From Campylobacterota bacterium (GTDB lineage: Bacteria > Campylobacterota > Campylobacteria > Campylobacterales > Sulfurimonadaceae), in assembly GCA_034717975.1 (NCBI GenBank), contig JAYEMF010000138.1, forward strand, positions 8,949 through 67,692: 58,744 nt of DNA, read 5' to 3'. Shown here piece by piece: positions 23,763-57,239 of the stretch; positions within the stretch are counted from its first letter, which is position 1, and the number at the start of each line of letters is the position of its first letter. A program made the position numbers and the translations under genes. A model generated the notes under the pieces. The model saw only the letters and a list, made by a program, of their open reading frames with translations. It made no database searches and was not told where the DNA came from.

Positions 23763-25544
23763 TTAATTCATACCAGCTTGGTTGACATCATACCCTACCA
23801 GTTTACCAACTCTTACGATACTTTCATTCATAGTTACTGTTTGGGCGTTCAACTCCTCGCTTGATGCCGCCATCTCCTCAGAAACTGCAGCATTTGACTG
23901 AGTTCTGGTATCAATGCTATTGATGTTCTCTGTTATTTCAACCATTTTAGAAGACTGGCTGTTAATTGAGTCAACTATTTCATTGATGATGGCAGATGTT
24001 TTTTCAGCATTTTCCAAAATCTTATCAAAGGATGTTTTTGACTCAAATGCACTGCTGTTTCCATCTTTGATCAGTTTGATTGTACTTTCTATAATGGCAG
24101 TAGTTTCATGTGCGGCAGTAGCAGATCTTCGGGCAAGTGCTTTTACTTCGTCAGCAACAACGGCAAAACCAAGGCCATGTTCACCGGCCCTGGCGGCTTC
24201 TACTGCTGCATTCAAAGCCAATAGATTTGTCTGAGAAGCAATCTCATCTATTGTTTTTACAATTTTGTGAATCTCTTCGCTTGCCGCCGTTATTTTTTCC
24301 ATTGAATTCATCAAATTGTTTATTTTTTCATTACCTTCATGTGCAGAGGAATCTGTTTCGTTTGCCAGATTTGAAGCGATTGAGGCACTCTGCGAGTTTT
24401 GCTGGTTTTCCTTGGATGCAGATACGATGGTATGATTTATTTTCTCAACATTATTGGCTTGCCTGGTTGCGTCTTCTGCCAGTGATGAGGATGATGAGGC
24501 AATCTGGGCCGAGGCATCATTAATCTGACCACTGGCTCCCAATATCTCTTCAACAGAGTGGATAGTCGGTTTAACCATCATAAAATGGTTGGTTATAAAA
24601 ACGATTAAAACAATAAAAACTATTAAAAGTATTGTCAGCACTAAAAAGGCATATATCAGCGCTTTTGACTTCTCTATATGTGCATTGATGATTTGCAGCT
24701 CCTGTCCGACCAGATAGATACCAATGGTTTGATCTTTGTAATCCTTTACAGGAAATGAAGTGATAAAATAGTGATCATTTATAATATAACCGTTTTTTTC
24801 GAGAAGATTAAAATCTACTTTTTTGGCATTTTCCAGGAAGGTCTCATCATACGCTTTCAAATCTAAAAGATAATTTCCTACAGCTATCCTTTTTGAAAAA
24901 AGTTTGATGCCGCCAAGCTTGCTTTGGTCCATCATATAGAGAAACTCAATGTTGTCTTTTTTTAGAGATTTCTGTACGGAGTTCAGTCCCTGTATAAATT
25001 CCAATGAACCTGCATAACTGTTGGTACTGTCGTAAATAGGAACAACAGATTTAAGCGTCATGCCGGCTTTTCCTATTTCAAAGGCAGTAATCGGCTTTCC
25101 TGTTTTCTTTACATGCGTGATAGTATGTCGAAACCCTTTAAGGTCATCCCCATATTTTTTTGGTTTCCAGCCTCTGACAAATGATTTTATATCTTTTGTA
25201 TGAACTTGAATTTTCACGTTCTTAAAAGAGGTTTTTTCTTTGTAGTTTTTACCCGTTTCTATAATCGCATCAAGGGCCATCTGTCTGTTGTTTGCGACAA
25301 GAGCATCAACGATGGTTTTGTTACTTGCCAATCCTGTTGCATTGCTTATGGCAACACTCTTTTTTAAGTCAATCTCTTTTTTTAGCATAATATGTAATTT
25401 TGATTTGATATTTTGATATTCATCTTTTTCCATATTTGCCAGATAGACCTGCATACCTATAAAAGTAAAAACCAAAATTACAAAACCACTTAAAGCGATT
25501 AACAGAATACTTCTTTTCCCTACACTTAACTCTGAGAAAATCAT
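23763..25544 (-). CDS. methyl-accepting chemotaxis protein with periplasmic Cache-like sensor
   Basis: TM, a Cache-like region ([22 protein letters not shown]...[17 protein letters not shown]), a second TM, and the conserved MCP hairpin [43 protein letters not shown]. Confidence 0.9.
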
Positions 25545-38090: not shown

Positions 38091-38098
38091 GGATCACG

Positions 38099-40750: not shown

Positions 40751-42415
40751 TTAGATTTTGGAAACCACCTTGTTCCGGCCTCCCTCTTTTGCCTCGTACA
40801 TTGCCCTGTCAACACGGTTAAGCAGATCTTCTGCTGATTCGTTTGTATGGAATTTTGTGACGCCTAAACTGATCGTGAAGTGTGGGATATCCTCTTGAGT
40901 ATATGCTTCAATGGATGAACGAAGCATTTCCGCTTTGACTTCAGCCTGTTCAATATCTGAGTGAGGGAGTAAAATGATAAACTCTTCGCCACCCCAGCGC
41001 ACGACAATATCCTGGTCACGGACATGTTCCTTGATATAGTCGGCCAGTGTTGTCAGTACCGCATCACCTACCGCATGTCCATGGGTGTCATTGATCTCTT
41101 TGAAGTGGTCGATGTCGAACATAATGGTGGACAAAGGATGGCTGTAACGGTTGGCACGGTCGATCTCCTGCTGAAGCAGCTGGGTGAATTTCCGCCGGTT
41201 GTAAAGGTGGGTAAGCGGATCATAGGCAGCCTGATCTTCAAACGCCTTGGACTCTTCGGCAAGAAGCGTGATGTCGCTCATGGAAATGACAAAGTAATCC
41301 TCATTAAGATCATAGGTGTTTATAGTGACATTAAAGGTGTGTTCCAGACCCTCCTGATCGGCAAGTGTAACTATTCTGTCAATTTCATCGAGCTCCATGA
41401 TCTGGAACGCCCAGAATACTTTCTGGTTGTTGACGGTCGGGGTAAATGAACCACATCTGTCTATGAAAGAGTCACATATGCAGGCTTTGCGTTCCAAAAC
41501 GGCATTGACTGTCTCTTTTGAGAAGAAACGTTCAAAGGCACTGTTAAAGCTTAGAAGATGATGCCCGTCGGTTACCATGATGATACTGCTTTGTGAGTTG
41601 AGCACGGCCCGAAGTTCATCCGTTTTCAGTTTAACCTCTTCTTCGAGCTGCTGGTTAAAGGTTTCAATTTTTGCCTGTTTTGCTTCAAGGTCTTTATTTA
41701 AGAGCGTGATAGATAATTTTTGTATTAACTGTTTTTGAAAGATCACGATCAAAATGAGGATAATGGCGGCAAAAAGAAGCATAATATAGATGGTACGCTG
41801 CCGGGCATCTATATATGCGGCATCAATCGTTTCTGTTGAGAGGGTAATGCTGATCGCACCGCGGATATCACCCAGTGTATACCCCTGCTGCTTATGACAT
41901 GCAAGACATGATTGTGCAGTCACCATTGCTCCGGCAAAACGAAGCTGCTGTTTATCCGGAAAACGTTTATAGTGATGCTTTGAATCCCTGTCTTTTTCAA
42001 AAAGAGTAAGGGCCTCTGTTTCAAAAGCATCTGGTACGTTAATCGGATTGGTGGGGTCCAGACTGGTCAGGCGAAAGGAGTACCCCTCTATGGAGGAGAT
42101 CTCAGAGAGCTGGCGGGTCATCCAGGCCGGATTGATCTTGATAAGGGTCAGGTTCTCATCGACTTTTAAGGTGTTGTTCGGGAGGTAAGGGTTGGGAGTT
42201 ATGCCATCTGCCGGCTTGACATAGACACCTCCGAAGTGTGCATTCCATTTACGGGTGTTGATGATATCGTCATAATGTAAAATAGCCTCTTGGATCAGGG
42301 CCGCTTCACTGTCTTTTTCTGTCTGTTTGAGGTTGTTCAATAAAATAGTTACAACAAAGCTGGTTAATATTAGGAGGAACAATAAAAAAAGCCAGAAAGA
42401 ACGCTCTTTAATCAC
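40751..42415 (-). CDS. periplasmic heme-c-motif sensor (DUF3365/Tll0287-like) - PAS - GGDEF diguanylate cyclase
   Basis: TM, a roughly 190-aa periplasmic region containing CLACH (CxxCH), a second TM, coiled coil, a PAS-like region, and GGDEF with RDQDIVVRWGGEEF. GTG start. Confidence 0.8.
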   Translation of the reverse strand: MIKERSFWLFLLFLLILTSFVVTILLNNLKQTEKDSEAALIQEAILHYDDIINTRKWNAHFGGVYVKPADGITPNPYLPNNTLKVDENLTLIKINPAWMTRQLSEISSIEGYSFRLTSLDPTNPINVPDAFETEALTLFEKDRDSKHHYKRFPDKQQLRFAGAMVTAQSCLACHKQQGYTLGDIRGAISITLSTETIDAAYIDARQRTIYIMLLFAAIILILIVIFQKQLIQKLSITLLNKDLEAKQAKIETFNQQLEEEVKLKTDELRAVLNSQSSIIMVTDGHHLLSFNSAFERFFSKETVNAVLERKACICDSFIDRCGSFTPTVNNQKVFWAFQIMELDEIDRIVTLADQEGLEHTFNVTINTYDLNEDYFVISMSDITLLAEESKAFEDQAAYDPLTHLYNRRKFTQLLQQEIDRANRYSHPLSTIMFDIDHFKEINDTHGHAVGDAVLTTLADYIKEHVRDQDIVVRWGGEEFIILLPHSDIEQAEVKAEMLRSSIEAYTQEDIPHFTISLGVTKFHTNESAEDLLNRVDRAMYEAKEGGRNKVVSKI

Positions 42416-42814: not shown

Positions 42815-44176
42815 ATGGTCAATATTCTGGTTATCGAAAATGCGGAAGAAAACAGATGCGCATTGCAAGAAGCGCTAGAGCATTTTGACAATCTGAAGAT
42901 TGTATCCGTAAATAGTTACGAAGAAGCAGTTGAACTGAGCAAAGAGCACTATTTCGAACTTGTCTTCTTCGATGTTTCCTGTATAGATAAGGTCTGTTTT
43001 GAAACTATCAGAACCCTTAAAGCACTTAATGTCGAGATGATAATCATCGCTTTTAACAGTGAACATGATCCTGAGACCGAGCAAACCATCCTCTCCCTGG
43101 GTGCAAAAGACTATATCAATAAATTTATCGATGTCGATCTCATGGCTCAGCGGCTTGAAAACTATCTTGAAATCATTCAGCTCAAAAAGCAGCAACTTTT
43201 TAATACCGAAGCGGTCAACCTCTTCAATAAAAATATTTTTCAGCGTATGACCACCTTCAATCTTGATTCTCATACCGGTATAGTCGAGTTTTGGGACTAT
43301 TTTATGGAAGACCACATTGAAACGTATGAATATTTGAAAGAATCCATAGGTATTTTGTATGCTTTTTCCAGCTGGCTTTTTAAAAGTCATCATGAGTGTC
43401 AGGTTATTCAAGAGCTGGATCACTCAGCTCTCTATCTGACAATGACGCCGATCGATACGCTTAGTGATAAAGTAATTGACGATATCTTCCGCAAATATGA
43501 CGGAAATGTGGCTTATCTGAAACAGGATAACAAACTCTCGTTAAAACTGAACAAGATCGGCGTTGAAGCAGCTATGGAAACGGCCGATGAAGCAGAGATT
43601 GAAACGGTTGTTGAAACGGTTAGTCCGGATATAAGTGAAAAGCCCTCCGAAGAGCTACTCGAAATCGATGATGAAACGCAAAAAATACTGGGAAAAACCC
43701 ATTTTAACAAGATCAGTGCTGCTGAATTTGTGGAGATGACGGCTATCTCCTACATGAGCAAGATCGACTCATTGATAGAGATAGAGGATCAGATCGATGA
43801 AGCGCTGATCAGCTTTGAAGATGAACCGAGTACTGAAAAGACGCATCTTATTTCCGAGGCGTTCATGCGTTATGTCGAAGTGATCAAACTGCTTGTTGAG
43901 TTTGACCATCTTGTCTTTGCCATCATGACCCTTGCCAGTGCGATCGACGGGATTACAGAAGAGAAGTTGACCCCGAAAGAGATTAAGAAGTTTACGACGC
44001 TGGCACTGCATCTTATAAACGACCTGAGCAGCTGGCGTGACAATATATTTATCAAGCAGGAGGCAAATGATATTCACTATCTTGACTCTTCGCTGCTGAG
44101 TTCATGCCTGCAGATCGAGAGCATTTTCGCAGACAAAAAAATTGAAGAGGAGGAAGACGATTTTGAACTCTTTTAA
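42815..44176 (+). CDS. acidic protein with N-terminal (partly degenerate) receiver domain and uncharacterised C-terminal 330 aa; ChePep-like architecture
   Basis: REC-like fold with EN in place of the DD pair (LVIENAE), the phospho-Asp position kept (LVFFDVS), and K kept (GAKDYINKF). The rest is E/D-rich with a helical C-terminus. I chose ATG 42815 as start (AGGAGG 8 nt upstream). The track start is GTG 42779. Confidence 0.6.
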   Translation: MVNILVIENAEENRCALQEALEHFDNLKIVSVNSYEEAVELSKEHYFELVFFDVSCIDKVCFETIRTLKALNVEMIIIAFNSEHDPETEQTILSLGAKDYINKFIDVDLMAQRLENYLEIIQLKKQQLFNTEAVNLFNKNIFQRMTTFNLDSHTGIVEFWDYFMEDHIETYEYLKESIGILYAFSSWLFKSHHECQVIQELDHSALYLTMTPIDTLSDKVIDDIFRKYDGNVAYLKQDNKLSLKLNKIGVEAAMETADEAEIETVVETVSPDISEKPSEELLEIDDETQKILGKTHFNKISAAEFVEMTAISYMSKIDSLIEIEDQIDEALISFEDEPSTEKTHLISEAFMRYVEVIKLLVEFDHLVFAIMTLASAIDGITEEKLTPKEIKKFTTLALHLINDLSSWRDNIFIKQEANDIHYLDSSLLSSCLQIESIFADKKIEEEEDDFELF

Positions 44177-44373
44177 GAAAAGTAGATATAGGATGTTTCC
44201 CGGATACCTGCACTTAATTTACATAGTTCCTCCATTTTATTTTTCTATAATCTCAAAAAGTTGTTCAAATATACCTATTAGAGTGTCAACGCTTCTGTCT
44301 GTGCTTAAAAAGAGGGTATTAACGTTGATTTTATTAGTAACAGATTTTAATTTCATGAAAAAGGAGAGGAGTT

Positions 44374-44760
44374 TTGGCTAAGAAAATAATTTTAGTGGAT
44401 GATTCGAAGACAATCCTGGCTACGGCCGAGATGGCATTGGAGGATCTTGTTGCTGATGGAACGATTACGTTGACAACGTATCTCAATCCGGCAGAGTTGC
44501 GTGATGCACTGATCGGCGGCAGTGAAGATTTTGATCTGCTGATCAGTGATATCAATATGCCACAGCTAAACGGCCTTGATCTTGCTACCGAACTGAAACA
44601 GAATGATGGATTTAAAAACAAACCTATCCTTATCCTGACGACGGAGAGTTCGGCGGAGATGAAAGCCAAAGGCAAAGAGATCGGGGTTACGGGATGGCTG
44701 GTCAAGCCCTTCAGTGACGAAAAACTGGTCAAAGCCATGAAGATGGTGTTAGGAATCTAA
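44374..44760 (+). CDS. cheY: chemotaxis response regulator CheY
   Basis: 128-aa single REC domain: LVDDS, LLISDINMP, ILILTTES, LVKPF. TTG start with AGGAGAGGAG SD. Confidence 0.85.
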   Translation: MAKKIILVDDSKTILATAEMALEDLVADGTITLTTYLNPAELRDALIGGSEDFDLLISDINMPQLNGLDLATELKQNDGFKNKPILILTTESSAEMKAKGKEIGVTGWLVKPFSDEKLVKAMKMVLGI

Positions 44761-44761
44761 G

Positions 44762-45274
44762 ATGGATGAGACAAAGAAAACAGAAGAGCTCACCACGGCA
44801 AACAGGTACTTGACCTTTTTTGTCGAAGATGAGCAGTATGGGATAGATATCTCTAAAATAAAAGAGATCATAGCTGCGATGCATATTACCCATATTCCAA
44901 AGACACCGGATTTCGTCAAAGGGGTGATCAACCTGCGCGGTTCGATTATCCCGGTGGTAGATATCCGGTTGAAATTCGGAATGCCTGAACGTGAGATCGA
45001 TATGAACACGGCGATCATCATCTATGAGGTGGACAAGGTCTCTATCGGTTTTATTGTCGATCAGGTCGAAGATGTGCTTTCGTTAGATAAAGAGCATATT
45101 TCTGAAGCCCCCCATTTTGGCAGCAGTATCGATACCTCCTTTATCGAGAATGTGGCGGAAGTAGATAATGACGTCATTATGCTTCTGAACCTGGAGAAGA
45201 TCTTTGAGGCGGAAGAGTTGCTGGATATCAGTAAATTGGAACGTGAAGAAAAACAGAAAGAAGAGGTGGACTAA
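44762..45274 (+). CDS. cheW: chemotaxis coupling protein CheW
   Basis: [21 protein letters not shown]...[21 protein letters not shown]...[11 protein letters not shown]. Begins 1 nt after the cheY stop. Confidence 0.9.
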
Positions 45275-45275
45275 G

Positions 45276-47264
45276 ATGAAAATGACAATCAAAAAACAGT
45301 TGATTATTGCACTGCTGTTAGTAGGGATTACACCGTTTGTGATCATGGGTATCAGTTCGTATACGAAAGCCAGCGGGGCGCTGGACCATGAAGCACATTC
45401 CAAGCTGGAGATGGCGCGCGACCTGAAAAAAGCGCAGCTGGAGAACTATGTCAAGTTTATCGACGGTTCTATCGGTATGCTGGGGCAGAGCGCCGATGTC
45501 AACAATATGTTTTCGGAACTGCTCCGTCTGCACAATAAACATCATGTAGGGGCGAATGAGCCGTTTCATATTACCGAAGAACCGGAAGTACAGGAACTCT
45601 ATAGACAATACGACAGTTATTTCAAGGCATTCCTGGACAAATACGGCCTTTATGATCTCTTCATGATCTGTAAACCGCACGGCCATGTCATGTATACGTC
45701 TGCCCGTGAGTCTGACCTCGGAGAAAACCTGAAGGTGGGTCAACTGCGTGACAGCGGTCTGGCTGAAATACATAGAGAGGTGGTTTCCCAGCGCAAGACG
45801 GTCTTTGTAGATATGCGCCCTTATGCGCCAAGCGGTGGAGCACCGGCTATGTTTATGGGTACGCCTATTACCGATAAAGACGGAAATATGAAGGGCGTAG
45901 TAGCCGTCCAGCTCAGCGAGAAGTCTGTTAACGAGATTATGCAGAACCGTGCGGGTATGGGAGAGACGGGTGAGACCTATCTGGTGGGATCTGACAAGCT
46001 GATGCGTTCGGACAGTTTCCTTGATCCGACGAACCACTCGATCGAAGCATCGTTTAAAAATCCTTCATCCGGATCGGTCAACACTGATGCAGTCAATGCG
46101 GCACTCTCAGGTAAATCAGGGACGGAAATCGTTACTGATTACAAGGGCCATCAGGTCCTCTCTTCTTACACGCAGATTGACTTTTTCGGTGTTCACTGGG
46201 CACTGCTCGCAGAGGAGGACGAGTCAGAAGTCTTTGGACCGGTCTATGAACTGCGTAACAATGCAGTGGTGATGGGACTGATATTTCTTGGGTTGATCAT
46301 CGCCATCGCGCTCTTTCTTGGGCGTTTCATCTCCAAGCCGATCATTACGGCTGTCGTCTCGATCATGGAGTCTAACGACCAGGTGGTCAGTGCATCGACA
46401 GAGATCGCTGACTCGGCTACGGGTCTGGCTGAGGGTGCAAGTGAACAGGCAAGCAGTGTGGAGCAGGTGAGTGCCACCGTTGAAGAGTCTACCGCCATCA
46501 ACACGCAGAATTCCAGCAACTCCCGTGAAGCGGATATTTTGGCCAAAGATGCGAAAGCCTCTGCCGAAGATGGCGCCGTCAAAGGTGATGAACTTATCAG
46601 TGCTATGGATGAGATCAACAGCTCAAGCGAGCGTATCTCTAAAATTATCAAGACGATCGACGAGATCGCTTCACAGACAAAACTGCTTGCCCTCAATGCG
46701 GCGGTCGAAGCAGCGCGTGCAGGTGAACATGGACTTGGTTTCGCGGTGGTCGCCGATGAAGTCAAAAGTCTGGCACAGCGTTCGTCTGATGCGTCTACCG
46801 AAACTGCCAGTATTATTGAGGAGTCGATCTCCCAGACCAAAAAAGGGTCTGAGATCGCTCAACTTACTTCACAGTCTTTCCAGGATATTCTGGAGCGCAT
46901 CAATAAAACTTCCAACCTCATTGGTGAGATCTCTATCTCTGCCAAAGAGCAGAGTGAAGGGATGAACCAGATCGCTACTGCCATGGGTGAGATCGATCAG
47001 GTCACTCAACAGAATGCGGCGACCAGTGAAGAGGCTGCTGCTGCAGCCGAAGAGCTTAATGCGCAGGCAGTCTCGATGAAAGAGACGGTAAATGTCATCG
47101 CTGCCATGGTTGGTGAGGCAACGAATGCGACAACGGCATCGAACCCGTCACAAAGCAGGGCACAGACACGACGTGCACCGCGTCCGGCAAGAGCTGCTGC
47201 TCCGGCACAGAAAAGTGCCGATGATGTCTTTCCTCTGGATGAAGAGGATCTCAAGGAGTTCTAG
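45276..47264 (+). CDS. methyl-accepting chemotaxis protein with double-Cache-like periplasmic sensor
   Basis: TM, a roughly 290-aa periplasmic region, a second TM, and the MCP hairpin [43 protein letters not shown]. It has an Ala/Pro/Arg-rich tail ending DEEDLKEF. I moved the start to ATG 45276 (1 nt after the cheW stop). Confidence 0.9.
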
Positions 47265-47528
47265 ATGACCATTGATGGCGATACCCTTGAAATCGAGCTC
47301 GATATGGACATCAAAGATGTCGTTGAGCTGAAAAACTTTGTAGCTGACAGGCTCGAGTATATCGAAGCTGTCACTATTACAGGAGAGATGGATGCCTTTA
47401 CCTCCTCTTCCCTGTTCCAACTGCTTCACAGTATCAAAAGATCAAAGCCGTCGATCACTATCAATGCGATCGATGCGGATTTAATGCTTGAGCAGTATGG
47501 CCTGATACATTGGGTGAAACATGACTAA
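47265..47528 (+). CDS. STAS (SpoIIAA / anti-sigma-antagonist-like) domain protein
   Basis: 87 aa. LEIELDMDIKDVVELKNFVADRL...VTITGEMDAFTSSSLFQLLHSIKRS...ITINAIDADLMLEQYGL follows the STAS beta-alpha pattern with a Ser-rich loop at the phospho-Ser position. The ATG abuts the MCP stop, and there is an 8-nt overlap with cheA. Confidence 0.6.
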   Translation: MTIDGDTLEIELDMDIKDVVELKNFVADRLEYIEAVTITGEMDAFTSSSLFQLLHSIKRSKPSITINAIDADLMLEQYGLIHWVKHD

Positions 47529-49653
47529 AGAGCAGATACGTGAGATTTTCATCGAAGAAGCGACAGAGATCATCGAAAAACTCGATGTCGATATCATCAA
47601 CTTCGAAGAGAATCCCGAAGACAAAGAACTCCTGCATGGACTCTTCCGTGGCGTCCATACCCTGAAAGGGAGTGCCAACTCCTTTGGCTTTACCCGTCTG
47701 GGTGAGTTTGTCCACCACTTTGAGGATGTGCTTGATCATTACCGTAATACCGATGATGAAGTGACACCGCAGAGTATAGATCTCTTTTTGACCGCGGTGG
47801 ACATTATTAAAGATGTGATGTGGCGTGAGGTCGATGGCAATGAAGGCGTGCCGGACACTTACAATGAGACACTGGCGGGGATCAAAGCGATCCTTGCCTA
47901 TAAAACAGGTGAAACGGCAGAGGAAGAAGCTCTTCCTGATCTTGCAGCCGAGTTTGCAGAAGTACCTGTGAATGCACCGGCAGAAGTGACAGCCGGAGGC
48001 CATTTCAATGAAGAGGATATCAAGCGCTTTAAGACGATGCTTGAAGATGGTGAAGAGCTCTATCATATCGCACTGACACTCGATGATGATATCTACTTTC
48101 GCGGCTTTGATCACGCCAAGATATTCAAACTTTTAAAGGATGAGGGACACCTCCTCGAATCATGGTGGGATATGGGTGATGTTCCGGAACTTGCAAAGCT
48201 CGATCCGGAACGATGTTTCATTAAACGGGTTGATCTTTTTCTGGCCAGCCGCAATATCGCTTCAGATATCGAGGAGATCTTTGAGTATATCGATGAGCAT
48301 GAGTTTACCTTTCAGCACATGGAAAAAGAGCCGCCTCCGCCGAAACCAGAGCCAAAGCCGCTTAGAGAGGAAGATATCAAGTTTGGCCGTCGGCAAGAAG
48401 ATAATGAGCCAGAACCATCAGGCAGACGCAAGTCAGATAGAAAAGAACCCGATGTCAGTCGCGGCCGCCGTAAAAATGATGCCCGTTCCTTTGTCAAGAT
48501 CGATACCAATAAACTTGATGAACTCTTTGACTCGGTAGGAGAGTTGGTCATCGCGCAGAACTATATCGCTGAGAGTGAAGATATTAAAAAGATCAAACAT
48601 GAGGGTGTGAACAAAACCATGAATCACCTTTCAAAGATCACCCGTCTTATTCAGAACCGGGTCATGTCTTTACGGATGGTCGCGGTCAGTGATACCTTTG
48701 AGAAGATGAAGCGGGTAGCACGCGATGCTTCCAAGAAAGTAAACAAAGAGATCTCACTGGAGATCGAAGGCGGCGATACCGAGATCGATAAGACTATGGT
48801 CGATGCGCTCTCTGATCCGCTCATTCACATTATGCGTAATGCGATCGATCACGGGATTGAAGATGATGTTTCAGACCGTATCGCGCTCAATAAAACGGAG
48901 ACCGGTGTTATTTCACTTCGGGCATTCCATCGTGGCGGCAACATTGCCATCGAGGTCTCCGATGATGGTCGCGGTATTAACCGTGATAAAGTCTTTGCCA
49001 AAGCGGTTGAGCGTGGACTGATCAATGAAGATGATGAGCTGAGTGATTCGCAGGTCTTCGCTCTGATTATGCAGGCCGGTTTTTCAACGGCTGATGTGAT
49101 CAGTGATATCTCCGGACGCGGGGTAGGGCTGGATGTGGTACGAAGTTCCATTGAGAAGCTTCATGGCCGGGTGGAAATTTCATCAGAAGTAGGTAAAGGC
49201 TCGACTTTTACCATTTTACTTCCGCTGACACTGGCCATTATAGACGGTATGGTCGTTAAAAGTGCCAACGATACCTTTATCATTCCGACACTTTCCGTAG
49301 TGGAGTCATTTATCCCTTCCAAAGAGATCGTACACTCCATCAAACAGCAGGGTGAGTTTGTCGACCTTCGGGGTGAGATGATCCCGATCGTCCGACTCAA
49401 TCATGTATTAGAGATCAGTGAAGATAAACCGGAGATCTGCGAGTCGACACTGATGTGTGTCGAGAGTGATAAGGGCAAGTATGCCGTGTTGGTCGATGAT
49501 CTTATCGGCCGCCAGCAGGTGGTCATCAAGTCACTTGGCCCGACACTTTCGAAGATCAAAGAACTCTCCGGCAGTGCCATCATGGGTAGCGGTGAGATCG
49601 CATTGATCCTGGATGTTGAACAGCTGTTGATTCAGGGGGAGGCAAAAGAGTGA
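47521..49653 (+). CDS. cheA: chemotaxis histidine kinase CheA (no fused receiver)
   Basis: P1 Hpt (LFRGVHTLKGSANSFGF), a PPPPKPEPKP linker, a dimerisation domain, the kinase core (DPLIHIMRNAIDHGIE, SDDGRGIN, GRGVGLDVV) and a P5 CheW-like end. Confidence 0.95.
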   Translation: MTKEQIREIFIEEATEIIEKLDVDIINFEENPEDKELLHGLFRGVHTLKGSANSFGFTRLGEFVHHFEDVLDHYRNTDDEVTPQSIDLFLTAVDIIKDVMWREVDGNEGVPDTYNETLAGIKAILAYKTGETAEEEALPDLAAEFAEVPVNAPAEVTAGGHFNEEDIKRFKTMLEDGEELYHIALTLDDDIYFRGFDHAKIFKLLKDEGHLLESWWDMGDVPELAKLDPERCFIKRVDLFLASRNIASDIEEIFEYIDEHEFTFQHMEKEPPPPKPEPKPLREEDIKFGRRQEDNEPEPSGRRKSDRKEPDVSRGRRKNDARSFVKIDTNKLDELFDSVGELVIAQNYIAESEDIKKIKHEGVNKTMNHLSKITRLIQNRVMSLRMVAVSDTFEKMKRVARDASKKVNKEISLEIEGGDTEIDKTMVDALSDPLIHIMRNAIDHGIEDDVSDRIALNKTETGVISLRAFHRGGNIAIEVSDDGRGINRDKVFAKAVERGLINEDDELSDSQVFALIMQAGFSTADVISDISGRGVGLDVVRSSIEKLHGRVEISSEVGKGSTFTILLPLTLAIIDGMVVKSANDTFIIPTLSVVESFIPSKEIVHSIKQQGEFVDLRGEMIPIVRLNHVLEISEDKPEICESTLMCVESDKGKYAVLVDDLIGRQQVVIKSLGPTLSKIKELSGSAIMGSGEIALILDVEQLLIQGEAKE

Positions 49654-50480
49654 GCCGGGAGCATGACCTTACCATAGCCGAGTTTAAGAAGTTTCAGCAG
49701 CTGATCTATGACGAGATCGGTATCTCGCTGGCTGATCATAAACGTACACTGGTCCAGTCACGTTTGAGAAAATGGCTGAGTGAATTTGACATGCCAAACT
49801 ACAAAGCGCTATATAAGAAGATAGCAGATGATAAAAGCGGCCAGATGTTAACGATGCTTGTCAATGCGATTACGACCAATGTGACCTCTTTCTTTCGGGA
49901 GGAGAACCAGTGGATCTATCTGCAGGAGCATATGGCTGAACTGTTTGATACAAAGAGCAAACGCATCCGTATCTGGTCGGCAGCCTGTTCCAGCGGACAG
50001 GAGCCCTACAGCATCATTATGTTTTTGAAAGAGCACCTGGCCAACTTTCATCAGTGGGACATCAAAATCCTGGCGACAGATATCTCCGAAGAGATCCTGC
50101 ATAAAGCCACAGAAGGTATTTATGCCCAAAAAGATGTGGAAAACCTGCCGCGTCATATAGTGCATAATTATTTTACGGTGGTAAAAGATAAAAAGGGTCT
50201 CAAGGCCTTTGCCATCAAAGAGGAGCTCAAGAAGTACATCACCTTTCGTGCCTTTAATCTTGTCACAGGTAACTTTGGACTCTTTAAAAACAACTTCGAC
50301 ATGATCTTCTGCCGTAATGTCATGATCTACTTTGACCGTCCAACGCAGAACACACTGCTTGAACAGTTCGCAAAACGGCTTGACAAGCATTCGAGACTCT
50401 TTATCGGGCACTCCGAGTCGATTCACAATAAAGAGGGAAGCTACAAGATGGTTGTCCCCTCGATCTATAGACTACAGTAA
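49650..50480 (+). CDS. cheR: chemotaxis protein methyltransferase CheR
   Basis: NVTSFFRE, IRIWSAACSSGQEPYSI, ILATDIS, FDMIFCRNVMIYFD. The GTG start overlaps the cheA stop (GTGA). Confidence 0.9.
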   Translation: MSREHDLTIAEFKKFQQLIYDEIGISLADHKRTLVQSRLRKWLSEFDMPNYKALYKKIADDKSGQMLTMLVNAITTNVTSFFREENQWIYLQEHMAELFDTKSKRIRIWSAACSSGQEPYSIIMFLKEHLANFHQWDIKILATDISEEILHKATEGIYAQKDVENLPRHIVHNYFTVVKDKKGLKAFAIKEELKKYITFRAFNLVTGNFGLFKNNFDMIFCRNVMIYFDRPTQNTLLEQFAKRLDKHSRLFIGHSESIHNKEGSYKMVVPSIYRLQ

Positions 50481-50489
50481 GGATAGAGT

Positions 50490-51380
50490 ATGGAAATTTC
50501 AGAAACTACTGACAACGAGCTGCTTCAGGAGATTAGCCGCCGTTTTGAAGAGAAGGCATCTTCGATCAAAGAGATGGAGTTTATGACCAAAAAACTTCTT
50601 GAACTCAATGAAAAGAACAAAGAGGCGCAGGAGGTCAAAAGCAAGTTTCTCTCACTGATCAAAAATGAGTTCAATAATCCGATGTCATCTTTGCTTAATC
50701 TTGTCAATATGATGGTTAAAAAGGCGGATGATGCCCGTATGGCGGACTTGTCCGGAATGATGAAAATGGAGCTGCTCAAACTTGATTTCAGCCTGAAAAA
50801 TATCTTCGCCGCGTCGGAGATCGAAGCCGGCGAGATCGCCAATGACTACTCCAAGGTTGAGATCAAAGATATTCTGGATGAAGTGATTGACTATTTCAGC
50901 TATCTCATTGCAGAAAAATCACTTGAGATCAACTATAGCTGCAACTGTGATGAACAGATCATCAGCGACTCCCAAAAACTCGATACGATCTTGCTCAATC
51001 TTGTCTCAAATGCCTGCGAATACTCCTTTGAAAACTCACATATCAATGTCATCGTAGATTGTGATGAGATGAACTACTCCATTACGGTCGAAGATGCAGG
51101 AGAAGGTGTATCGCATGACCATGCCAAAGATATCTACAACCGCTTTTCGCATTTCGAGTCTGGTAAAACACGCCGTACCGCCGGTCTTGGTCTGGGACTG
51201 AGCGTCACACGCGGGATGGTGGAAGCCCTGGAAGGCTCTATCGATAACATTACCAAAGAGGGGAAAACGATATTTATCGTCACAATCCCGAAAGTCAATG
51301 AAGAGCAGGTCGAACTTTCGCAAGGGATCGGCTCGAATGAGTTTATCTTTGATGATGGTGAAGGAATGGTGGAGTTCTAA
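50490..51380 (+). CDS. soluble histidine-kinase-like GHKL ATPase lacking the H-box histidine
   Basis: Coiled-coil N-terminus. The DHp-like helix reads KSKFLSLIKNEFNNPMSSLL, with Asn where SHELRTPL has His. The N box (LLNLVSNACEYS), G1 (VEDAGEGV), F (IYNRF) and G2 (GLGLGLSV) are intact. No TM or sensor domain. Confidence 0.75.
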   Translation: MEISETTDNELLQEISRRFEEKASSIKEMEFMTKKLLELNEKNKEAQEVKSKFLSLIKNEFNNPMSSLLNLVNMMVKKADDARMADLSGMMKMELLKLDFSLKNIFAASEIEAGEIANDYSKVEIKDILDEVIDYFSYLIAEKSLEINYSCNCDEQIISDSQKLDTILLNLVSNACEYSFENSHINVIVDCDEMNYSITVEDAGEGVSHDHAKDIYNRFSHFESGKTRRTAGLGLGLSVTRGMVEALEGSIDNITKEGKTIFIVTIPKVNEEQVELSQGIGSNEFIFDDGEGMVEF

Positions 51381-51490
51381 TGAGCCCTTCTATTCTGGAT
51401 AGAATTAGCTTTAGTGCCAGAGCGGTAAGTGTTCACTGTACGGGCTTAGCCCGTACAGTGACCAAAAAAATAGTTTTGGTGGAGTTCTAA
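51381..51490 (+). repeat. 110-bp insert between HK-like gene and cheD, bounded by a 14-bp direct repeat
   Basis: TGGTGGAGTTCTAA occurs at 51367-51380 and 51477-51490. Inside lie a perfect 12-bp-stem hairpin CACTGTACGGGC-tta-GCCCGTACAGTG (51434-51460) and a 6-bp hairpin TTCTAT-tctgg-ATAGAA. Frame 51380..51490 is open (36 codons). Confidence 0.8.
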
Positions 51491-51955
51491 ATGTACACCC
51501 GGAAGTTTATCCACGTTGGTGAGATCCATATCGGTGCCAGACCGACCGAGATCAGTACGATCCTGGGTTCATGTATCGCCGTGTGCCTCTATGACAATAT
51601 CCAGCGTGTCGGTGGTATGAACCACTATCTGGTTCCTTTATGGAATGAGAACGGCCTGCAGACGCCGAAATTTGGCAATATCTCCATCCCGAGACTGATC
51701 GAGAGTATGGTCAATGTCGGGTGTGATGTTCACAATATGGAAGCCAAAGTGTTCGGCGGCGGCAATGTGATCGATATAAAGCAGGAAGATATGATGATCG
51801 GACGAAAGAACATCCTGATCGCCAAAGAGATATTGCGGGAGTATGGTATTCCCATCACTGCACAGGATGTCGGTGGCGAGAAGGGCAGACGGATTATGAT
51901 GCGCAGTGACACAGGAAAGATTTTTTTGAAATATACACAGAAAAGTGAAGAGTAG
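51491..51955 (+). CDS. cheD: chemoreceptor glutamine deamidase CheD
   Basis: ILGSCIAVCLYD (catalytic Cys context), NHYLVP, AKVFGGGNV. Confidence 0.9.
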   Translation: MYTRKFIHVGEIHIGARPTEISTILGSCIAVCLYDNIQRVGGMNHYLVPLWNENGLQTPKFGNISIPRLIESMVNVGCDVHNMEAKVFGGGNVIDIKQEDMMIGRKNILIAKEILREYGIPITAQDVGGEKGRRIMMRSDTGKIFLKYTQKSEE

Positions 51956-51958
51956 AGT

Positions 51959-53002
51959 ATGGGAATAAATGTTCTTGTAGTCGATGACAGTGCCACGGCA
52001 CGGGCAATTCTGACTGAAATACTTCAAAGTGATTCTGAAATCGGCAGGATAGATACCGCTCCTGATGCCTACATCGCCCGTGATAAGATCGTAAAATCCC
52101 GTCCCGATGTTGTCTGCCTGGACGTCGAGATGCCTCGGATGGACGGGATCACTTTTTTAAGAAAGCTGATGCAGCATATGCCGATCCCGGTCGTGATGGT
52201 CTCATCGTTGACCCAAAAAGGGGCACAGACTACACTGGATGCGCTTGAAGCCGGAGCGGTTGATTTCATTCCCAAACCCCATTCAAACATCTACGAGAGT
52301 TCCGATGATATCCGTGAAGAGCTGCTCGAGAAGGTCAAAAATGCTGCGTATGCCCATGTGACCAAACACGTGAATACAGGGCCGGCTAAACACCTGAGTT
52401 ACCATAGTTCACTTTCGGAGACGACCCAGAAGCTGATCGCCATAGGAGCCTCCACCGGTGGTGTTGAAGCGCTTAAAGCTTTTTTGACCCAGTTTCCGCG
52501 TAATGCACCGGGTATGTTGATCGTTCAGCACATGCCGGCTGATTTTACCAAGCAGTTTGCCGAGCGTCTGGACGGTGTCTGTGAGATCGATGTCAAAGAG
52601 GCCAAAAACGGTGACACGGTCAATATAGGCGAGGCACTGCTGGCTCCAGGGGATATGCATATGGTCCTTCGGCGTTCCGGACACCGCTACTATGTCCAAC
52701 TGGGCGGTGGAGATAAAGTTTCAGGTCACCGCCCTTCGGTGGACGTCATGTTCAACTCTGTTGCCAAAACGGCCGGTGTCAATGCGCTTGGCGTAATTTT
52801 GACCGGAATGGGCTCTGATGGTGCCAAAGGATTGACCAATATGCGTAAATCCGGTGCCATGACCTTTGGACAGGATAAAAAAAGTTCTACCGTTTACGGT
52901 ATGCCAAAGGTGGCTTTCGAACTGGGTGGTGTGGCCAAGCAAAGCTCCCTTGAAGCACTGCCTGGAGATATGTTGCGTCATCTTGAGAAGATGGAGAGCT
53001 AA
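51959..53002 (+). CDS. cheB: protein-glutamate methylesterase CheB (REC + esterase)
   Basis: REC domain (VLVVDDSATAR, VVCLDVEMPRMDG) and esterase domain (IAIGASTGG, LIVQHMP, SGHRPSVD, GMGSDGA). Confidence 0.95.
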   Translation: MGINVLVVDDSATARAILTEILQSDSEIGRIDTAPDAYIARDKIVKSRPDVVCLDVEMPRMDGITFLRKLMQHMPIPVVMVSSLTQKGAQTTLDALEAGAVDFIPKPHSNIYESSDDIREELLEKVKNAAYAHVTKHVNTGPAKHLSYHSSLSETTQKLIAIGASTGGVEALKAFLTQFPRNAPGMLIVQHMPADFTKQFAERLDGVCEIDVKEAKNGDTVNIGEALLAPGDMHMVLRRSGHRYYVQLGGGDKVSGHRPSVDVMFNSVAKTAGVNALGVILTGMGSDGAKGLTNMRKSGAMTFGQDKKSSTVYGMPKVAFELGGVAKQSSLEALPGDMLRHLEKMES

Positions 53003-54267
53003 TGCAAAATGTACTGATCGTTGATGACAGCAAATTTATCCGCACTATTGCCGAAGAGGAGATTTTGCGTGTTGTCGATGCCAATATTGTCACGGCGGCA
53101 TCTTACAAAGAGACGCAAGCGATCATTAAAGAGCATGCGTTCCATGTAGCCGTACTGGATGTTCATCTTCCCGATGCGGAGAAGGGCGAGGTGATCGACC
53201 TGCTTGTGGAGAAAAATGTTCCCGTTGTCGTCTTGACCGGGGGAATGAATGCAACGACAAAAGAGATTATTCTTAATAAAGAGATCATCGAGTATGTCAC
53301 CAAAAGTGACCCTCAAACTATCAAATATATGGCTGCCATTGTTAAACGGGTCCTGAAAAATTATGATGAGCATGTCCTGATCGTGGATGACTCCAAGAGT
53401 TCCAGAATGTTGTCGAAGATGTACCTTGAAAAACTCAAAGTCAACGTATTGGAAGCGAGCAGTGCCAAAGAAGCTATGGAGATGATCAATGCAACTGAGC
53501 ATCACGTCTCTTTGGTCCTGACTGATTATGAGATGCCGGATATGAACGGTATGGAGCTGGCCATGCAGCTGCGTCAGAGTTATAGTAAAGACCAGCTCTC
53601 CATTATTGCTGTAAGCGGCACTGAAATGTCACATATAGCTACAGACTTTTTACGCCACGGGGCCAATGACTTTATTAAAAAACCGTTCACCTATGAAGAG
53701 TTCGCCGTACGGGTCAATGTCAACCTTGAACTGATCGACCTTTTTATCGAGAGTAAAGAGAGTGCCAACAAAGATTTTATGACCGGCCTCTATAACCGCC
53801 GTTTTTTCTTTGAGAGCGGTGAGCCCCTGTTAGCCAAAGCTCAGAGAAAGAAGAGACCGTTAGCTGTAGTGATGTTGGATATTGACTTCTTCAAGCGCGT
53901 CAACGATACTTATGGCCATGATGTGGGTGATATTGCCATTAAAGAGGTAGGAAAGGTTCTCCATAAAATGCTTCGCCAATCAGACCTGATCGCGAGGTTT
54001 GGCGGTGAGGAGTTCTGTCTCCTGCTTGAAGATGTGACGTTGGAAGATCTTGAGAAAAAGTTTGAAGCCATCCGTGCCGTATTTGAAAAAAATGTCATCA
54101 CAGTCGATGATGTCAGCTTCTCCTATACCATTTCCACAGGTATATGTTATGGTCTTGATGATTCGCTAGAGACTCTGATCAAGTACTCCGATGAAGCACT
54201 CTATGACGCGAAAGAGGGCGGGCGCAACAGGGTGGTCATTAAAAACCTGCATACCGGAGATGATTAG
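53002..54267 (+). CDS. REC-REC-GGDEF response regulator diguanylate cyclase (operon output)
   Basis: Two receivers (LIVDDSKF...VLDVHLPD and LIVDDSKS...VLTDYEMPDMNG...IKKPF), then GGDEF with I-site plus active site RQSDLIARFGGEEF. The ATG overlaps the cheB stop (TAATG). Confidence 0.9.
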   Translation: MQNVLIVDDSKFIRTIAEEEILRVVDANIVTAASYKETQAIIKEHAFHVAVLDVHLPDAEKGEVIDLLVEKNVPVVVLTGGMNATTKEIILNKEIIEYVTKSDPQTIKYMAAIVKRVLKNYDEHVLIVDDSKSSRMLSKMYLEKLKVNVLEASSAKEAMEMINATEHHVSLVLTDYEMPDMNGMELAMQLRQSYSKDQLSIIAVSGTEMSHIATDFLRHGANDFIKKPFTYEEFAVRVNVNLELIDLFIESKESANKDFMTGLYNRRFFFESGEPLLAKAQRKKRPLAVVMLDIDFFKRVNDTYGHDVGDIAIKEVGKVLHKMLRQSDLIARFGGEEFCLLLEDVTLEDLEKKFEAIRAVFEKNVITVDDVSFSYTISTGICYGLDDSLETLIKYSDEALYDAKEGGRNRVVIKNLHTGDD

Positions 54268-55473: not shown

Positions 55474-56217
55474 ATGAGAATACTTTTAGGTCTGTTTGTA
55501 ACGGCGCTGCTGCTTTTGGGAAATGAAGTCGAGCGTATTGAGAGTATTGTCAATGATGTGACCAAGCTTCGTCAGAACTATGAAGGGTGTAGAGCCCAAC
55601 TTGCTGCAGTGGAGCGCGGAGAGGGCGGGAACAGTGATGAAAAAATGCTTGCGCTTCAACGCGAGATCCAATCACAGCGAGATCTGTACGAACGTGAAAT
55701 AGAGCGGATGAAAAACGAGCTTATCGTAAGCGAAAAGAAACTCGTCTTGGTGACGCGTTCACTCAAGGATGCCAAGGAAAAAAAGGGTGAGTATAAACAG
55801 CATCTCAATGCTCAGCAGCAAGTGGCAGGTAAACAGAAAAGCACTCAGGTGAAAACAGTCTATGTCACGGCTGATGCTGCGTCCTGTCCCGATCCCAATC
55901 CCTTTCCAAAACTCCTGATGAAAAAGGAGTATACGGCGATGAAGAGCAATGGTACACTGAAAAGTTCCGCTGGAAAAGAAGCGGTGGAAAAACGGACCCA
56001 CTTTAAAGCCAGAGCTTTTAGAATGAAAAACAGGGCCAGGGTCTATGATGCACCCAAAGGTAAAGTGATAGCGACATGGGAGGCAAAAACATCGTTTACC
56101 TCCGGGGAGAAAGAGGGTGACTGGATCAGAATCACCGGTTATTTTATAGATAAAAAATGGCGCCCAAATCGGGATCGTGAGATGTGGGTCGAAAAGAAAA
56201 ATACGATCAGTCGGTAG
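55474..56217 (+). CDS. secreted coiled-coil protein with C-terminal SH3b-like domain
   Basis: Signal peptide MRILLGLFVTALLLLG, a coiled-coil middle part, and C-terminal ARVYDAPKGKVIATWEAKTSFTSGEKEGDWIRITGYF. Confidence 0.5.
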   Translation: MRILLGLFVTALLLLGNEVERIESIVNDVTKLRQNYEGCRAQLAAVERGEGGNSDEKMLALQREIQSQRDLYEREIERMKNELIVSEKKLVLVTRSLKDAKEKKGEYKQHLNAQQQVAGKQKSTQVKTVYVTADAASCPDPNPFPKLLMKKEYTAMKSNGTLKSSAGKEAVEKRTHFKARAFRMKNRARVYDAPKGKVIATWEAKTSFTSGEKEGDWIRITGYFIDKKWRPNRDREMWVEKKNTISR

Positions 56218-56225
56218 GTCAGAGT

Positions 56226-57239
56226 ATGAAAAAAATAGTCAAGCAAACCATTAATCAGGAGTTTCTGCCCGTTTCACCAAAAAAACTGGCTATAGATGAT
56301 GTACTTGATTTTGACTGTTTTATAAAACGTTTTAACGGTTATGCAATCATTCTCGAAGCAGGAACTCCGATCACCAGGGAACTCAAAGAGAAGATCGATG
56401 AACACCGCTTTCTCTATGTCCAGCAGAGGGAGGTCGATCAATATAGAGCCTATGTCGCTGAAAAAGCGGAGTTGGATGAGGAGTCGGAAGAGAAGAAGGG
56501 AGTGGATATTGACACCCTCTTTGAAAACCTGCTCGAATCCCTCAATGCGTGTAAAGATATTGATCAGCAGGTCGCACTGATCTATCAGACAGCATTGAGC
56601 CTGATGGAGGCCTACTTCTCAGCCGGGAATGAAGAGATCATGCTGAAATATATTGAGCTCTACAGTGATGCATTGATCGGGATATTTGATGGATCTGAGT
56701 ATAGACTCGGAGAATTCCTGGATGATATGCCAGATAGCTATGATGATGCATCGCATAATGTCAATGTCAGTTTTTTGGGTGTCTTGCTTGGCAGGGAACT
56801 GGGGTTGAGCAATCTTCAGCTTCATGAACTCTCTATTGCCGGAATTTTGCATGATATCGGCAAGGTCAGGATAGACCCGAAGATACTGAATAAAGACAGT
56901 TCGCTTGACAGTGATGAGTTTGAGGCTGTTCAGGAACATTCGGTATTTAGTGTTGAGATCGCAAAATATAACGGTGTGAGCAGTGCCAATGTACTCTCTG
57001 CCATACGGTATCATCATGAAAAGCTTGACGGAAGCGGTTACCCTGAAGGGCTGGAGGGGAATAAGATCCCGTTAATGGCCCAGATGATCGGAATCTGTGA
57101 TATCTTTGATGCATTGACCACCGATCATACTTTTCGGGCACGATACAGCAGTTTTGATGCGTTGAAGTTAATGAAGAGAGAGATGGCTCAGCAGCTCAAC
57201 GGCAGCTATGTCAATACGTTTATCAAGCTGTTGAAGTAA
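56226..57239 (+). CDS. HD-GYP domain c-di-GMP phosphodiesterase
   Basis: GILHDIGKV (HD) and HHEKLDGSGYPEGL (GYP). I moved the start to ATG 56226 (MKKIVKQ). The track start 56184 overlaps the upstream gene. Confidence 0.85.
   Translation: MKKIVKQTINQEFLPVSPKKLAIDDVLDFDCFIKRFNGYAIILEAGTPITRELKEKIDEHRFLYVQQREVDQYRAYVAEKAELDEESEEKKGVDIDTLFENLLESLNACKDIDQQVALIYQTALSLMEAYFSAGNEEIMLKYIELYSDALIGIFDGSEYRLGEFLDDMPDSYDDASHNVNVSFLGVLLGRELGLSNLQLHELSIAGILHDIGKVRIDPKILNKDSSLDSDEFEAVQEHSVFSVEIAKYNGVSSANVLSAIRYHHEKLDGSGYPEGLEGNKIPLMAQMIGICDIFDALTTDHTFRARYSSFDALKLMKREMAQQLNGSYVNTFIKLLK

Follow-up and report, generated by a model that had tools for sequence, protein, structure and literature searches.

A putative class-F7 chemosensory cluster of the Sulfurimonadaceae with a histidine-less kinase-like protein tied to cheD and a lineage-specific REC-REC-GGDEF cyclase

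Introduction

Does a che-type operon that ends in the gene for a diguanylate cyclase represent a new kind of chemosensory system, and what could its less usual members do? This question is raised by ten genes lying on the + strand at positions 44374-54267 of a 58,744-nt stretch of DNA, hereafter called the window, from a Campylobacterota bacterium of the Sulfurimonadaceae (assembly GCA_034717975.1, contig JAYEMF010000138.1). An earlier note on this DNA had read them, in order, as cheY, cheW, a methyl-accepting chemotaxis protein (MCP) gene, a STAS gene, cheA, cheR, the gene of a kinase-like ATPase without phospho-histidine, cheD, cheB and a REC-REC-GGDEF gene. It had proposed a candidate novel system, with a non-standard parts list, leading from chemoreception to cyclic di-GMP (c-di-GMP). 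The list of open reading frames (ORFs) bears out the ten ORFs with this order and these coordinates, and Pfam, by which gene families were assigned, supports nine of them, the exception being an 87-aa protein called S below. The kinase-like ATPase is called K, and a REC protein encoded upstream of the cluster is called RECup. ORF coordinates and Pfam confirm both the list of parts and the operon-like packing, and the junctions are likewise as stated, namely 1, 1 and 0 nt, an 8-nt overlap, a 4-nt overlap (GTGA), 9, 110 and 3 nt, and a 1-nt overlap (TAATG).

The claim of novelty did not survive the analysis. The nine genes from cheY to cheB are already found in about 50 loci, in Sulfurospirillum multivorans and in the F7 catalogue of Mo et al., so that the cluster appears from its sequence to be a catalogued, uncharacterised F7 variant. 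What is new here is the lineage-specific cyclase add-on and its link to the regulator CbrR, and also the membership of the histidine-less K in a wide, cheD-linked family. We regard it as somewhat probable that the cluster encodes an accessory class-F7 pathway in which CheA would drive an output including the c-di-GMP cyclase, and in which S and K would act as modulators.

Results and Discussion

Conservation and class of the nine-gene core

A scan with a profile of K, using one genome per species, gave 53 Campylobacterota loci, onto which the window proteins were mapped and in which the ORFs were clustered. The order cheY-cheW-mcp-S-cheA-cheR-K-cheD-cheB is present in about 50 Campylobacterota loci, nearly wherever the contig is long enough. 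The closest relatives of K, S and RECup come from Sulfurimonas, Sulfurimonadaceae and unclassified Campylobacterota, the remoter ones from Sulfurospirillum, Sulfuricurvum, Wolinella-like bacteria and Helicobacteraceae metagenome-assembled genomes. In S. multivorans (CP042966) the core has the same order, and next to it on that strand come the gene of a PAS histidine kinase and a RECup homologue. This gene-neighbourhood search across Campylobacterota, which the earlier note had suggested as a check, thus finds the core again and again, and the cyclase gene co-conserved with it only inside one subclade.

The chemosensory genes of 82 Campylobacterota genomes have been sorted by the Wuichet-Zhulin scheme (Mo et al. 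2022; PMC9321776, PMC9239204). A gene order termed 'F7_Sulfurospirillum' is named in the methods (PLoS Genet) for Sulfurospirillum, Sulfuricurvum and Sulfurimonas, and the legend of Fig 1B (mBio) gives S as a STAS-only gene and K as a histidine-kinase gene. The F7 rows of their S3 Table for S. denitrificans and S. deleyianum hold consecutive accessions with gaps exactly at M, S and K, and the accession order in the F7 row of S. multivorans matches the cluster, with gaps at the same three positions. The cluster is listed in this way, and the accessible parts of these articles are silent on the missing histidine, the conserved tails and the output.

The gene products themselves agree with an F7 assignment. 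CheA (47521..49653; Pfam, NCBIfam CheA models) consists of Hpt (with His46), dimerisation, HATPase and CheW-like domains and has no receiver. It is accompanied by a separate CheY, a single receiver with D9, D10, D59, T89 and K110 (44374..44760; Pfam Response_reg E = 6e-20), by CheW (44762..45274; Pfam CheW E = 2e-38), by CheD and by a CheB that combines a receiver with a methylesterase domain (51959..53002; Pfam), in the order cheY...cheA...cheR-cheD-cheB (Pfam, coordinates). The receptor (45276..47264; Pfam, Tsr alignment) is a transmembrane dCache_1 MCP without HAMP, with a flexible linker and a conserved tail; its start is most likely the ATG at 45276 rather than the ORF start at 45204. Because its signalling domain aligns without gaps to Escherichia coli Tsr 270-515, which is of the 36-heptad (36H) class, the receptor can be assigned by sequence to 36H. 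The spacing of its methylation sites agrees with 36H, and a 44H Thermotoga receptor aligns to it over unequal lengths. Altogether, the 36H receptor, the gene content and order, and the synteny with F7 clusters classified in the literature argue for F7 membership.

The cluster shares with F7_Sulfurospirillum, as catalogued there, the same nine genes in the same order, a 36H receptor, CheD and a receiver-less CheA. The genera concerned carry a flagellar F3 class as well (PMC9321776, PMC9239204). Unlike the catalogued order, the one analyzed here has a REC-REC-GGDEF gene overlapping the end of cheB, and a RECup gene upstream without its kinase.

The earlier note had also contrasted the cluster with Wsp of Pseudomonas, which belongs to the class of alternative cellular functions (ACF). 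Of the five departures from Wsp that it had listed, three (CheY as a protein of its own, the presence of CheD, and a CheA lacking a receiver) are ordinary for F7, so that the contrast is a comparison of different classes. Wsp has a receptor-controlled CheA-type kinase, a response-regulator diguanylate cyclase as output, and adaptation by CheR and CheB; its kinase is a CheA-receiver hybrid, it uses two CheW-like proteins and the single-receiver WspR, and it has no CheY, CheD, STAS protein or K. What the two have in common is a CheA-type kinase linked to a receptor, CheR and CheB, and a response-regulator diguanylate cyclase encoded in the cluster. Membership in Wsp/ACF was rejected in view of a CheA without REC, a single CheW and the presence of both CheY and CheD, and the likeness appears to be one of shared logic and not of shared membership.

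A separate observation concerns S. multivorans CP042966, in which the F7 cheA is split into three ORFs (L058 3226-5245). Mo et al. list this cheA by locus tag only, consistent with a split gene (PMC9321776, PMC9239204), and the F7 pathway may be inactive in this isolate.

K, a kinase-like protein without the phospho-histidine, and its association with cheD

K (50490..51380; Pfam, alignments) is a 296-aa HATPase_c protein built from a HisKA-type dimerisation and histidine-phosphotransfer (DHp) domain and a catalytic and ATP-binding (CA) domain, and it aligns over its full length to HisKA kinases (7z8n, HK853 and others). The description of K as a kinase-like ATPase without phospho-His is confirmed, its H-box reading KNEFNNP with Asn59 on the column of the phospho-His in SHE(I/L)RTP. 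Across the Campylobacterota loci the H-box follows the pattern FLS[LI][IV]KNEFNNP, with Asn on the His column in 53/53 of them. The Glu and Asn beside the His position are kept as an E-x-x-N motif, which we take to be the E/D-x-x-T/N phosphatase motif of HisKA kinases. So are the ATP boxes (N174, G204-E-G206, a YNRF F-box with Y216 and F219 invariant, and GLGLGLS), the G1 Asp being replaced by Asn in some members. Conservation is also strong in an N-terminal helix, and K ends in the conserved tail NEFIFDDGEGMVEF. The idea of a decaying pseudogene was rejected, since even homologues of 33% identity still share Asn59, the ATP boxes, the tail and the N-terminal helix.

An exhaustive profile search was then used to look at the wide K family, and of its 150 best representatives at 50% identity 149 were inspected. 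Asn occupies the His column in 127/149 of them; nearly all of these are about 295 aa long, carry FLSNIRNEINNPL and have a (G)NEFxFDD...xF tail. His is present in 18 representatives, which are long multidomain kinases. Seven informative distant members, 33-37% identical to K (loci L140 and L142-L147), were looked up, and six have cheD directly after K, either in the order cheR-K-cheD-cheB (three cases), as K-cheD alone on two contigs, or as K-cheD with an unassigned gene (one case). The seventh lies in the order cheW-cheR-cheB-K-mcp-cheY-STAS-cheA. In the Campylobacterota set cheD comes next after K in 49/54 cases, at gaps of -32 to +18 nt if the 110-bp gap of the window is excepted. Three of four non-adjacent cases have cheD directly downstream by tblastn and are artefacts of the gene caller, and a fifth K stands at a contig end. 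K and CheD are therefore the most constant pair in this kind of cluster. The searchable, incomplete literature yielded no description of a K-CheD pair or of a Sulfurimonas Che-cyclase system.

CheD itself (51491..51955; Pfam CheD E = 6e-26; NCBIfam CheD models) is of the chemoreceptor glutamine deamidase family. A parallel can be drawn with the CheC-CheD pair of Bacillus subtilis and Thermotoga, in which CheD is coupled to a partner acting on CheY~P. Neither the cluster nor the scanned ORFs of the window yielded a gene for CheC, CheX or CheZ, and the constant upstream neighbour of cheD is here K. Unlike CheC, K is an unrelated protein of HisKA-type DHp and CA domains. A second parallel is offered by DivL, which has Tyr for His, and by RetS, both among the weaker PDB sequence matches of K. 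Like K they consist of a DHp and CA scaffold, which in DivL and RetS does not autophosphorylate and is used for partner binding. Unlike them, K is soluble and without a sensor domain, has its His replaced by Asn, and goes with cheD in chemosensory clusters. By analogy with these systems, we prefer to see K as a receiver-docking partner of CheD that would act in a CheC-like manner, as a phosphatase or a sequestering protein.

One could go further and assume that K is the founding example of an unnamed, widespread His->Asn HisKA-type family that works with CheD, docks the receiver of CheY or CheB on its DHp helix, makes use of its receptor-like tail, and dephosphorylates the regulator or gates CheD, in a pathway that would at the same time supply a CheA -> REC-REC-GGDEF logic for CbrR-type regulators. 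Taken as a whole, this extended hypothesis is possible but doubtful. If it were true, K would fill the place that CheC takes beside CheD in Firmicutes and would explain CheD function in CheC-less pathways, and K could be a missing auxiliary component of many chemosensory pathways.

The cyclase gene, an addition in one subclade

The last gene of the cluster (53002..54267; Pfam, NCBIfam, motifs) encodes a REC-REC-GGDEF protein, a predicted diguanylate cyclase resembling CbrR and PleD. It does have two receivers and keep RxxD and GGEEF, as the earlier note had stated, with RQSD at 325 and GGEEF at 334. It was aligned to DgcR and PleD, its best solved relatives. Both receivers look functional, retaining the acidic pocket together with the Asp, the Thr or Ser, and the Lys residue (D8/D9/D53/T79/K101 and D129/D130/D175/S205/K227), D53 and D175 being the candidate phosphorylation sites. 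The best full-length NCBIfam match is CbrR, at 240 bits against a cut-off of 600, and the models that come after it are DgcR and PleD, the latter at 204.5 bits against 474, so that the protein stays far below the equivalog cut-offs for CbrR and PleD alike. CbrR of C. jejuni is an orphan REC-REC-GGDEF regulator with D53 and D174 and with degenerate KGRD/SAEKI motifs (Cox et al. 2021). It binds c-di-GMP rather than making it, and an interaction with CheA is cited by the same authors. CbrR, PleD of Caulobacter and the cyclase analyzed here have in common the three-domain architecture and Asp53 with a second Asp at about 175; unlike CbrR, the latter keeps RQSD and GGEEF.

Orthologues that are 48-69% identical follow cheB only in loci L001 and L008-L010, and in L006 and L007 cheB is followed by a longer orthologue, REC-REC-PAS-PAS-GGDEF. 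The gap between cheB and the cyclase gene ranges from -4 to +4 nt in the window, L001 and L006-L010. In a neighbour-joining tree of K, CheD and CheB, which carries no support values, the loci with the cyclase fall into three sub-branches of one Sulfurimonadaceae-rich clade. In other branches the genes after cheB encode an OmpR-type regulator, a member of the RECup family (at a 1-nt gap), a histidine kinase, a GGDEF-EAL protein, a DnaJ-domain protein or a 2-hydroxyacid dehydrogenase. To our knowledge the outputs of accessory F7 systems, such as Che2 of P. aeruginosa and cluster III of V. cholerae, have not been established, and a gene after cheB that varies with lineage (cyclase, OmpR-type regulator, RECup, GGDEF-EAL) would point to candidate F7 outputs.

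What becomes, then, of the claim that a CheA drives a response-regulator cyclase? It is plausible in view of the overlap with the cheB stop codon, the orthologues within 4 nt of cheB and the CbrR match, but the cyclase is tied to the core in one subclade only. The tight linkage to cheB, the intact motifs, the CbrR match and the report on CbrR and CheA favour phosphotransfer from CheA to the cyclase, which is likely the most economical reading of these sequences. A CbrR homologue that looks enzymatically intact and is encoded in a cheA operon would also be a natural place to address the question of CheA-to-CbrR phosphotransfer.

We also noticed that in the clade of L037-L053 a 2-hydroxyacid dehydrogenase gene (e.g. 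L039 12401-13363) overlaps the end of cheB by 4 nt, and is followed by genes for BrkB-like, DnaJ-domain, dCache kinase and deaminase proteins. It is an unexpected metabolic neighbour where other lineages place a regulator.

S, a STAS-like protein encoded in front of cheA

The label STAS given to S (47265..47528; AlphaFold model, Foldseek) finds support in the predicted fold, which appears STAS-like, and not in the sequence, which has no Pfam, NCBIfam or PDB match. The AlphaFold model, made with 33 homologues (mean pLDDT 88), shows the order beta-beta-alpha-beta-alpha-beta, and its best compact Foldseek matches are SpoIIAA (ranking second, with probability 0.98 and TM 0.54), RsbS, MlaB, RsfB and YchM-STAS, all at E > 0.03. 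Ser48 is invariant in 25 diverse members and lies where helix 2 begins in the model. The gene overlaps the start of cheA by 8 nt, an overlap that is kept in S. multivorans, and a distant cluster has in the same place, again overlapping cheA, a STAS gene that Pfam recognises. The invariant Ser48 at helix 2, the kept overlap and the STAS gene of the distant cluster favour the name, and S appears to be STAS-like by predicted fold and gene position only.

Here too a parallel exists. CheS of Sinorhizobium meliloti is a STAS-only protein of a che operon that binds CheA and alters its handling of CheY1. Both CheS and S are small proteins of che operons, S being STAS-like by its predicted fold. Unlike CheS, S is shorter (87 aa) and is encoded directly 5' of cheA, and the likeness comes without demonstrated sequence similarity.

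Receptor tail, CheR and a second receptor

After its flexible linker, the receptor ends in the tail D[VI]FPLxxxDLKEF, present in every cluster receptor across loci (47226-47264 in the window). Receptors of distant clusters end in DITFF, DFEKF, EYQKF and GFREF. These tails are presumably variants of NWETF, the pentapeptide by which CheR and CheB are tethered in E. coli. CheR, a methyltransferase (49650..50480; Pfam), has its best match in Salmonella CheR (1bc5/1af7, E = 2e-45, vs 7e-37 for P. aeruginosa CheR1 and 6e-36 for B. subtilis CheR), and this closest structure was solved with the pentapeptide. The cluster CheR is without the 4-residue deletion in the beta-subdomain that is seen in P. 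aeruginosa CheR1.

Three proteins of this region have similar acidic-hydrophobic tails, namely the receptor, K (NEFIFDDGEGMVEF, 51339-51380) and RECup (EEEEDDFELF, 44147-44176). At the family level K ends in x-E-[FML], and the RECup family in D[LF]E[LF]F.

A second chemoreceptor, with dCache_3 and unlinked to the cluster, is encoded on the - strand at 23763..25544 (Pfam). Its signalling domain aligns without indels to that of the cluster receptor, so that it is also 36H, and it has no C-terminal tail. This receptor could provide the same array with a further input.

RECup, a more widely conserved companion

RECup is encoded upstream of the cluster on the + strand, at 42815..44176 (the ORF opens with GTG at 42779, and the database start is the ATG at 42815), as a REC protein with an acidic tail; Pfam finds REC alone. 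In its AlphaFold model (mean pLDDT 83) a receiver and an alpha/beta domain are joined by a disordered linker to a helical bundle, after which comes an acidic tail, again disordered, that ends in DDFELF. A whole-model Foldseek search for its effector gave receivers only, and a profile of the C-terminal 326 residues gave no PDB or Pfam match. The guess that RECup is HPt-like or CheZ-like, which came from the helical bundle and the acidic tail, was dropped as nothing was found in its support.

The RECup family counts 230 relatives (an example is L058 10001-11293). Its genes are linked to the che cluster, on either side, in 30/53 loci as well as in S. multivorans, in up to three copies, and twice lie between cheR and K. 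A kinase of about 500 aa with PAS often precedes RECup, and a DnaJ-domain protein sometimes follows it. RECup thus accompanies the cluster more constantly than the cyclase does, and may be a second output.

A proposed pathway and its alternatives

Taking these elements together, we propose the following pathway. The dCache receptor, perhaps with the unlinked 36H receptor, would sit in an array with CheW and CheA. CheA, phosphorylated on His46, would pass the phosphate to CheY, to CheB and, in this lineage, to the REC-REC-GGDEF cyclase; the occupancy of the receptor by its ligand would in this way govern c-di-GMP production, which the product would inhibit via the RxxD site. CheR, CheB and CheD would adapt the receptor, its tail DLKEF serving as the CheR/CheB tether. 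S and K would be conserved modulators and not decayed genes. The synthesis of S would be coupled to that of CheA, to which S most likely binds in the manner of the Sinorhizobium protein CheS. K would go with CheD and most likely docks a receiver on its conserved DHp helix to remove or withhold the phosphate, like CheC beside CheD, and its kept ATP site would leave room for a role as Ser/Thr kinase towards S. RECup would be a second, more widely conserved output or partner.

Several results weigh against this pathway. All its arrows are drawn from motifs and the order of the genes. Most related clusters lack the cyclase; its relatives from metagenomes, at <= 41% identity, stand alone and not beside che genes, and one 65%-identical copy follows a RECup-like gene (L060). 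In S. multivorans a PAS histidine kinase gene precedes RECup inside the operon, so that a non-CheA kinase could serve the extra regulators. K has a complete ATP site, for which a pure phosphatase or scaffold has no need. As for S, no match to STAS or STAS_2 was obtained by sequence in Pfam, NCBIfam or PDB phmmer, a profile of the 25 diverse members found no STAS protein in the PDB, and hhalign against the Pfam-positive STAS protein of L140 gave a probability of 0.08. Finally, no F3-type cheV-cheA-cheW genes are present in the window, and the flagellar F3 cluster to which motility would be left rests on the literature. If none of the proposed roles holds, the locus is one more copy of a catalogued gene cluster.

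On the other hand, one could wonder whether the cluster is chiefly a motility pathway, with CheY as the real output on the flagellar motor and the cyclase as a passenger or a phosphate sink. CheY is the best conserved protein of the cluster (63-92% identity across loci), motA, motB and fliP lie 5 kb upstream, most relatives lack the cyclase, and F7 is the flagellar class in Arcobacter according to Mo et al. (PMC9321776, PMC9239204). The same authors, however, name F3 as the class that controls the flagella of Sulfurimonas, Sulfuricurvum and Sulfurospirillum, and describe the extra classes as having only one or two cognate receptors and the F7-type CheY as lacking the residues for coupling to FliM (PMC9321776, PMC9239204). 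Moreover, in the upper clade and the RECup clade most lineages have a gene for a signalling protein after cheB (others carry a 2-hydroxyacid dehydrogenase or DnaJ-domain gene at this position), a pattern which suggests exchangeable, non-motor outputs. We consider a pathway devoted chiefly to motility unlikely.

Another hypothesis is that S and K form a partner-switching pair, in which K phosphorylates Ser48 of S, and the state of S controls CheA or a regulator elsewhere. The invariant Ser48 at the N-terminus of helix 2 corresponds to the phospho-serine position of the SpoIIAA type, and small proteins of distant clusters have Ser/Thr in the same place. S and K occur together in nearly all loci, K keeps its N, G1, F and G2 boxes without the His, and many of its homologues have a weak match to HATPase_c_2, the RsbW type. 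K's own score with this model is nevertheless 17.6 bits against a cut-off of 27.4, and K is built as a HisKA kinase with a DHp domain and not as RsbW or SpoIIAB. Its constant neighbour is cheD and not S, K-cheD pairs exist without S, and the ORFs that were scanned (those of 150 aa or more in 1-42.5 kb, together with the cluster and its downstream flank) included no PP2C phosphatase and no sigma factor. Such a switch thus seems distinctly improbable, and the preferred role of K remains that of a partner of CheD.

A third possibility is that a conventional histidine kinase with its gene elsewhere drives both the cyclase and RECup, and that the Che system has a modulating part only, as reportedly in Che3/CrdS-CrdA of Myxococcus xanthus. 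We regard it as very unlikely. The kinase of about 500 aa with PAS lies directly upstream of RECup in S. multivorans and many loci, sometimes inside the che operon, and the 65%-identical cyclase of L060 follows a RECup-like gene, but no such kinase stands beside RECup or the cyclase in the window, where the cyclase gene overlaps cheB by 1 nt, as it overlaps cheB in related lineages too.

The insertion between K and cheD

The 110-bp gap between K and cheD (51381..51490, + strand; repeat and comparison with L001) had been described as an insert that is itself an open frame. The gap exists, and its frame ends in a duplicated K stop codon, the spacer being a lineage-specific insertion. It consists of a 96-bp element and the second copy of a 14-bp direct repeat, TGGTGGAGTTCTAA, whose copies lie at 51367-51380 (the end of K, including its stop codon) and 51477-51490 (directly before the cheD ATG); a perfect hairpin with a 12-bp stem is found inside the element at 51434-51460. 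L001, the closest relative, lacks the insertion and has only 2 nt between the stop codon of K and the start of cheD; among 49 scored pairs the gap of the window is the sole K-cheD gap above 18 nt. From its sequence the spacer can be taken as a local insertion with a duplication resembling that of a target site. No other copies of the hairpin or the insert were found in the window or in the 57 loci searched, and no repeat family could be defined.

Genomic setting

The cheY gene starts with TTG, 7 nt after AGGAG. About 120 nt 5' of it, a TATAAT hexamer read from the sequence (44246..44251, + strand) follows a T-rich stretch and is a possible operon promoter. The hexamer does not appear in the output of a sigma-70 scan, which demands a -35 match; the promoter and terminator scans gave background level only, and an Rfam search of the window found no RNA family.

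The flanks are as the earlier note described them, with two GGDEF genes on the - strand and the acidic-tail REC protein upstream, and with HD-GYP and partial-EAL/HDOD genes downstream. This downstream pair is separated from the cluster by trmA and one unassigned ORF. The remaining window looks like ordinary chromosome, with housekeeping genes, motA-motB-fliP, the second chemoreceptor and many c-di-GMP genes. The genes motA, motB and fliP lie at 37326-39612, about 5 kb upstream of the cluster, and their presence makes it likely that the organism is flagellated. The density of c-di-GMP genes is high, with five GGDEF genes, one HD-GYP gene and one partial-EAL/HDOD gene in 58.7 kb (5092-6069, 6212-8128 on the - strand, 39627-40691 on the - strand, 40751-42415 on the - strand, 53002-54267, 56184-57239 and 57251-58498), and the input domains of the GGDEF proteins are PAS, dCache_3, MASE6, Tll0287-like and REC-REC. 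Between trmA and the HD-GYP gene, a 247-aa ORF (55474-56217) has no Pfam or NCBIfam match, and it overlaps the start of the listed HD-GYP ORF by 34 nt.

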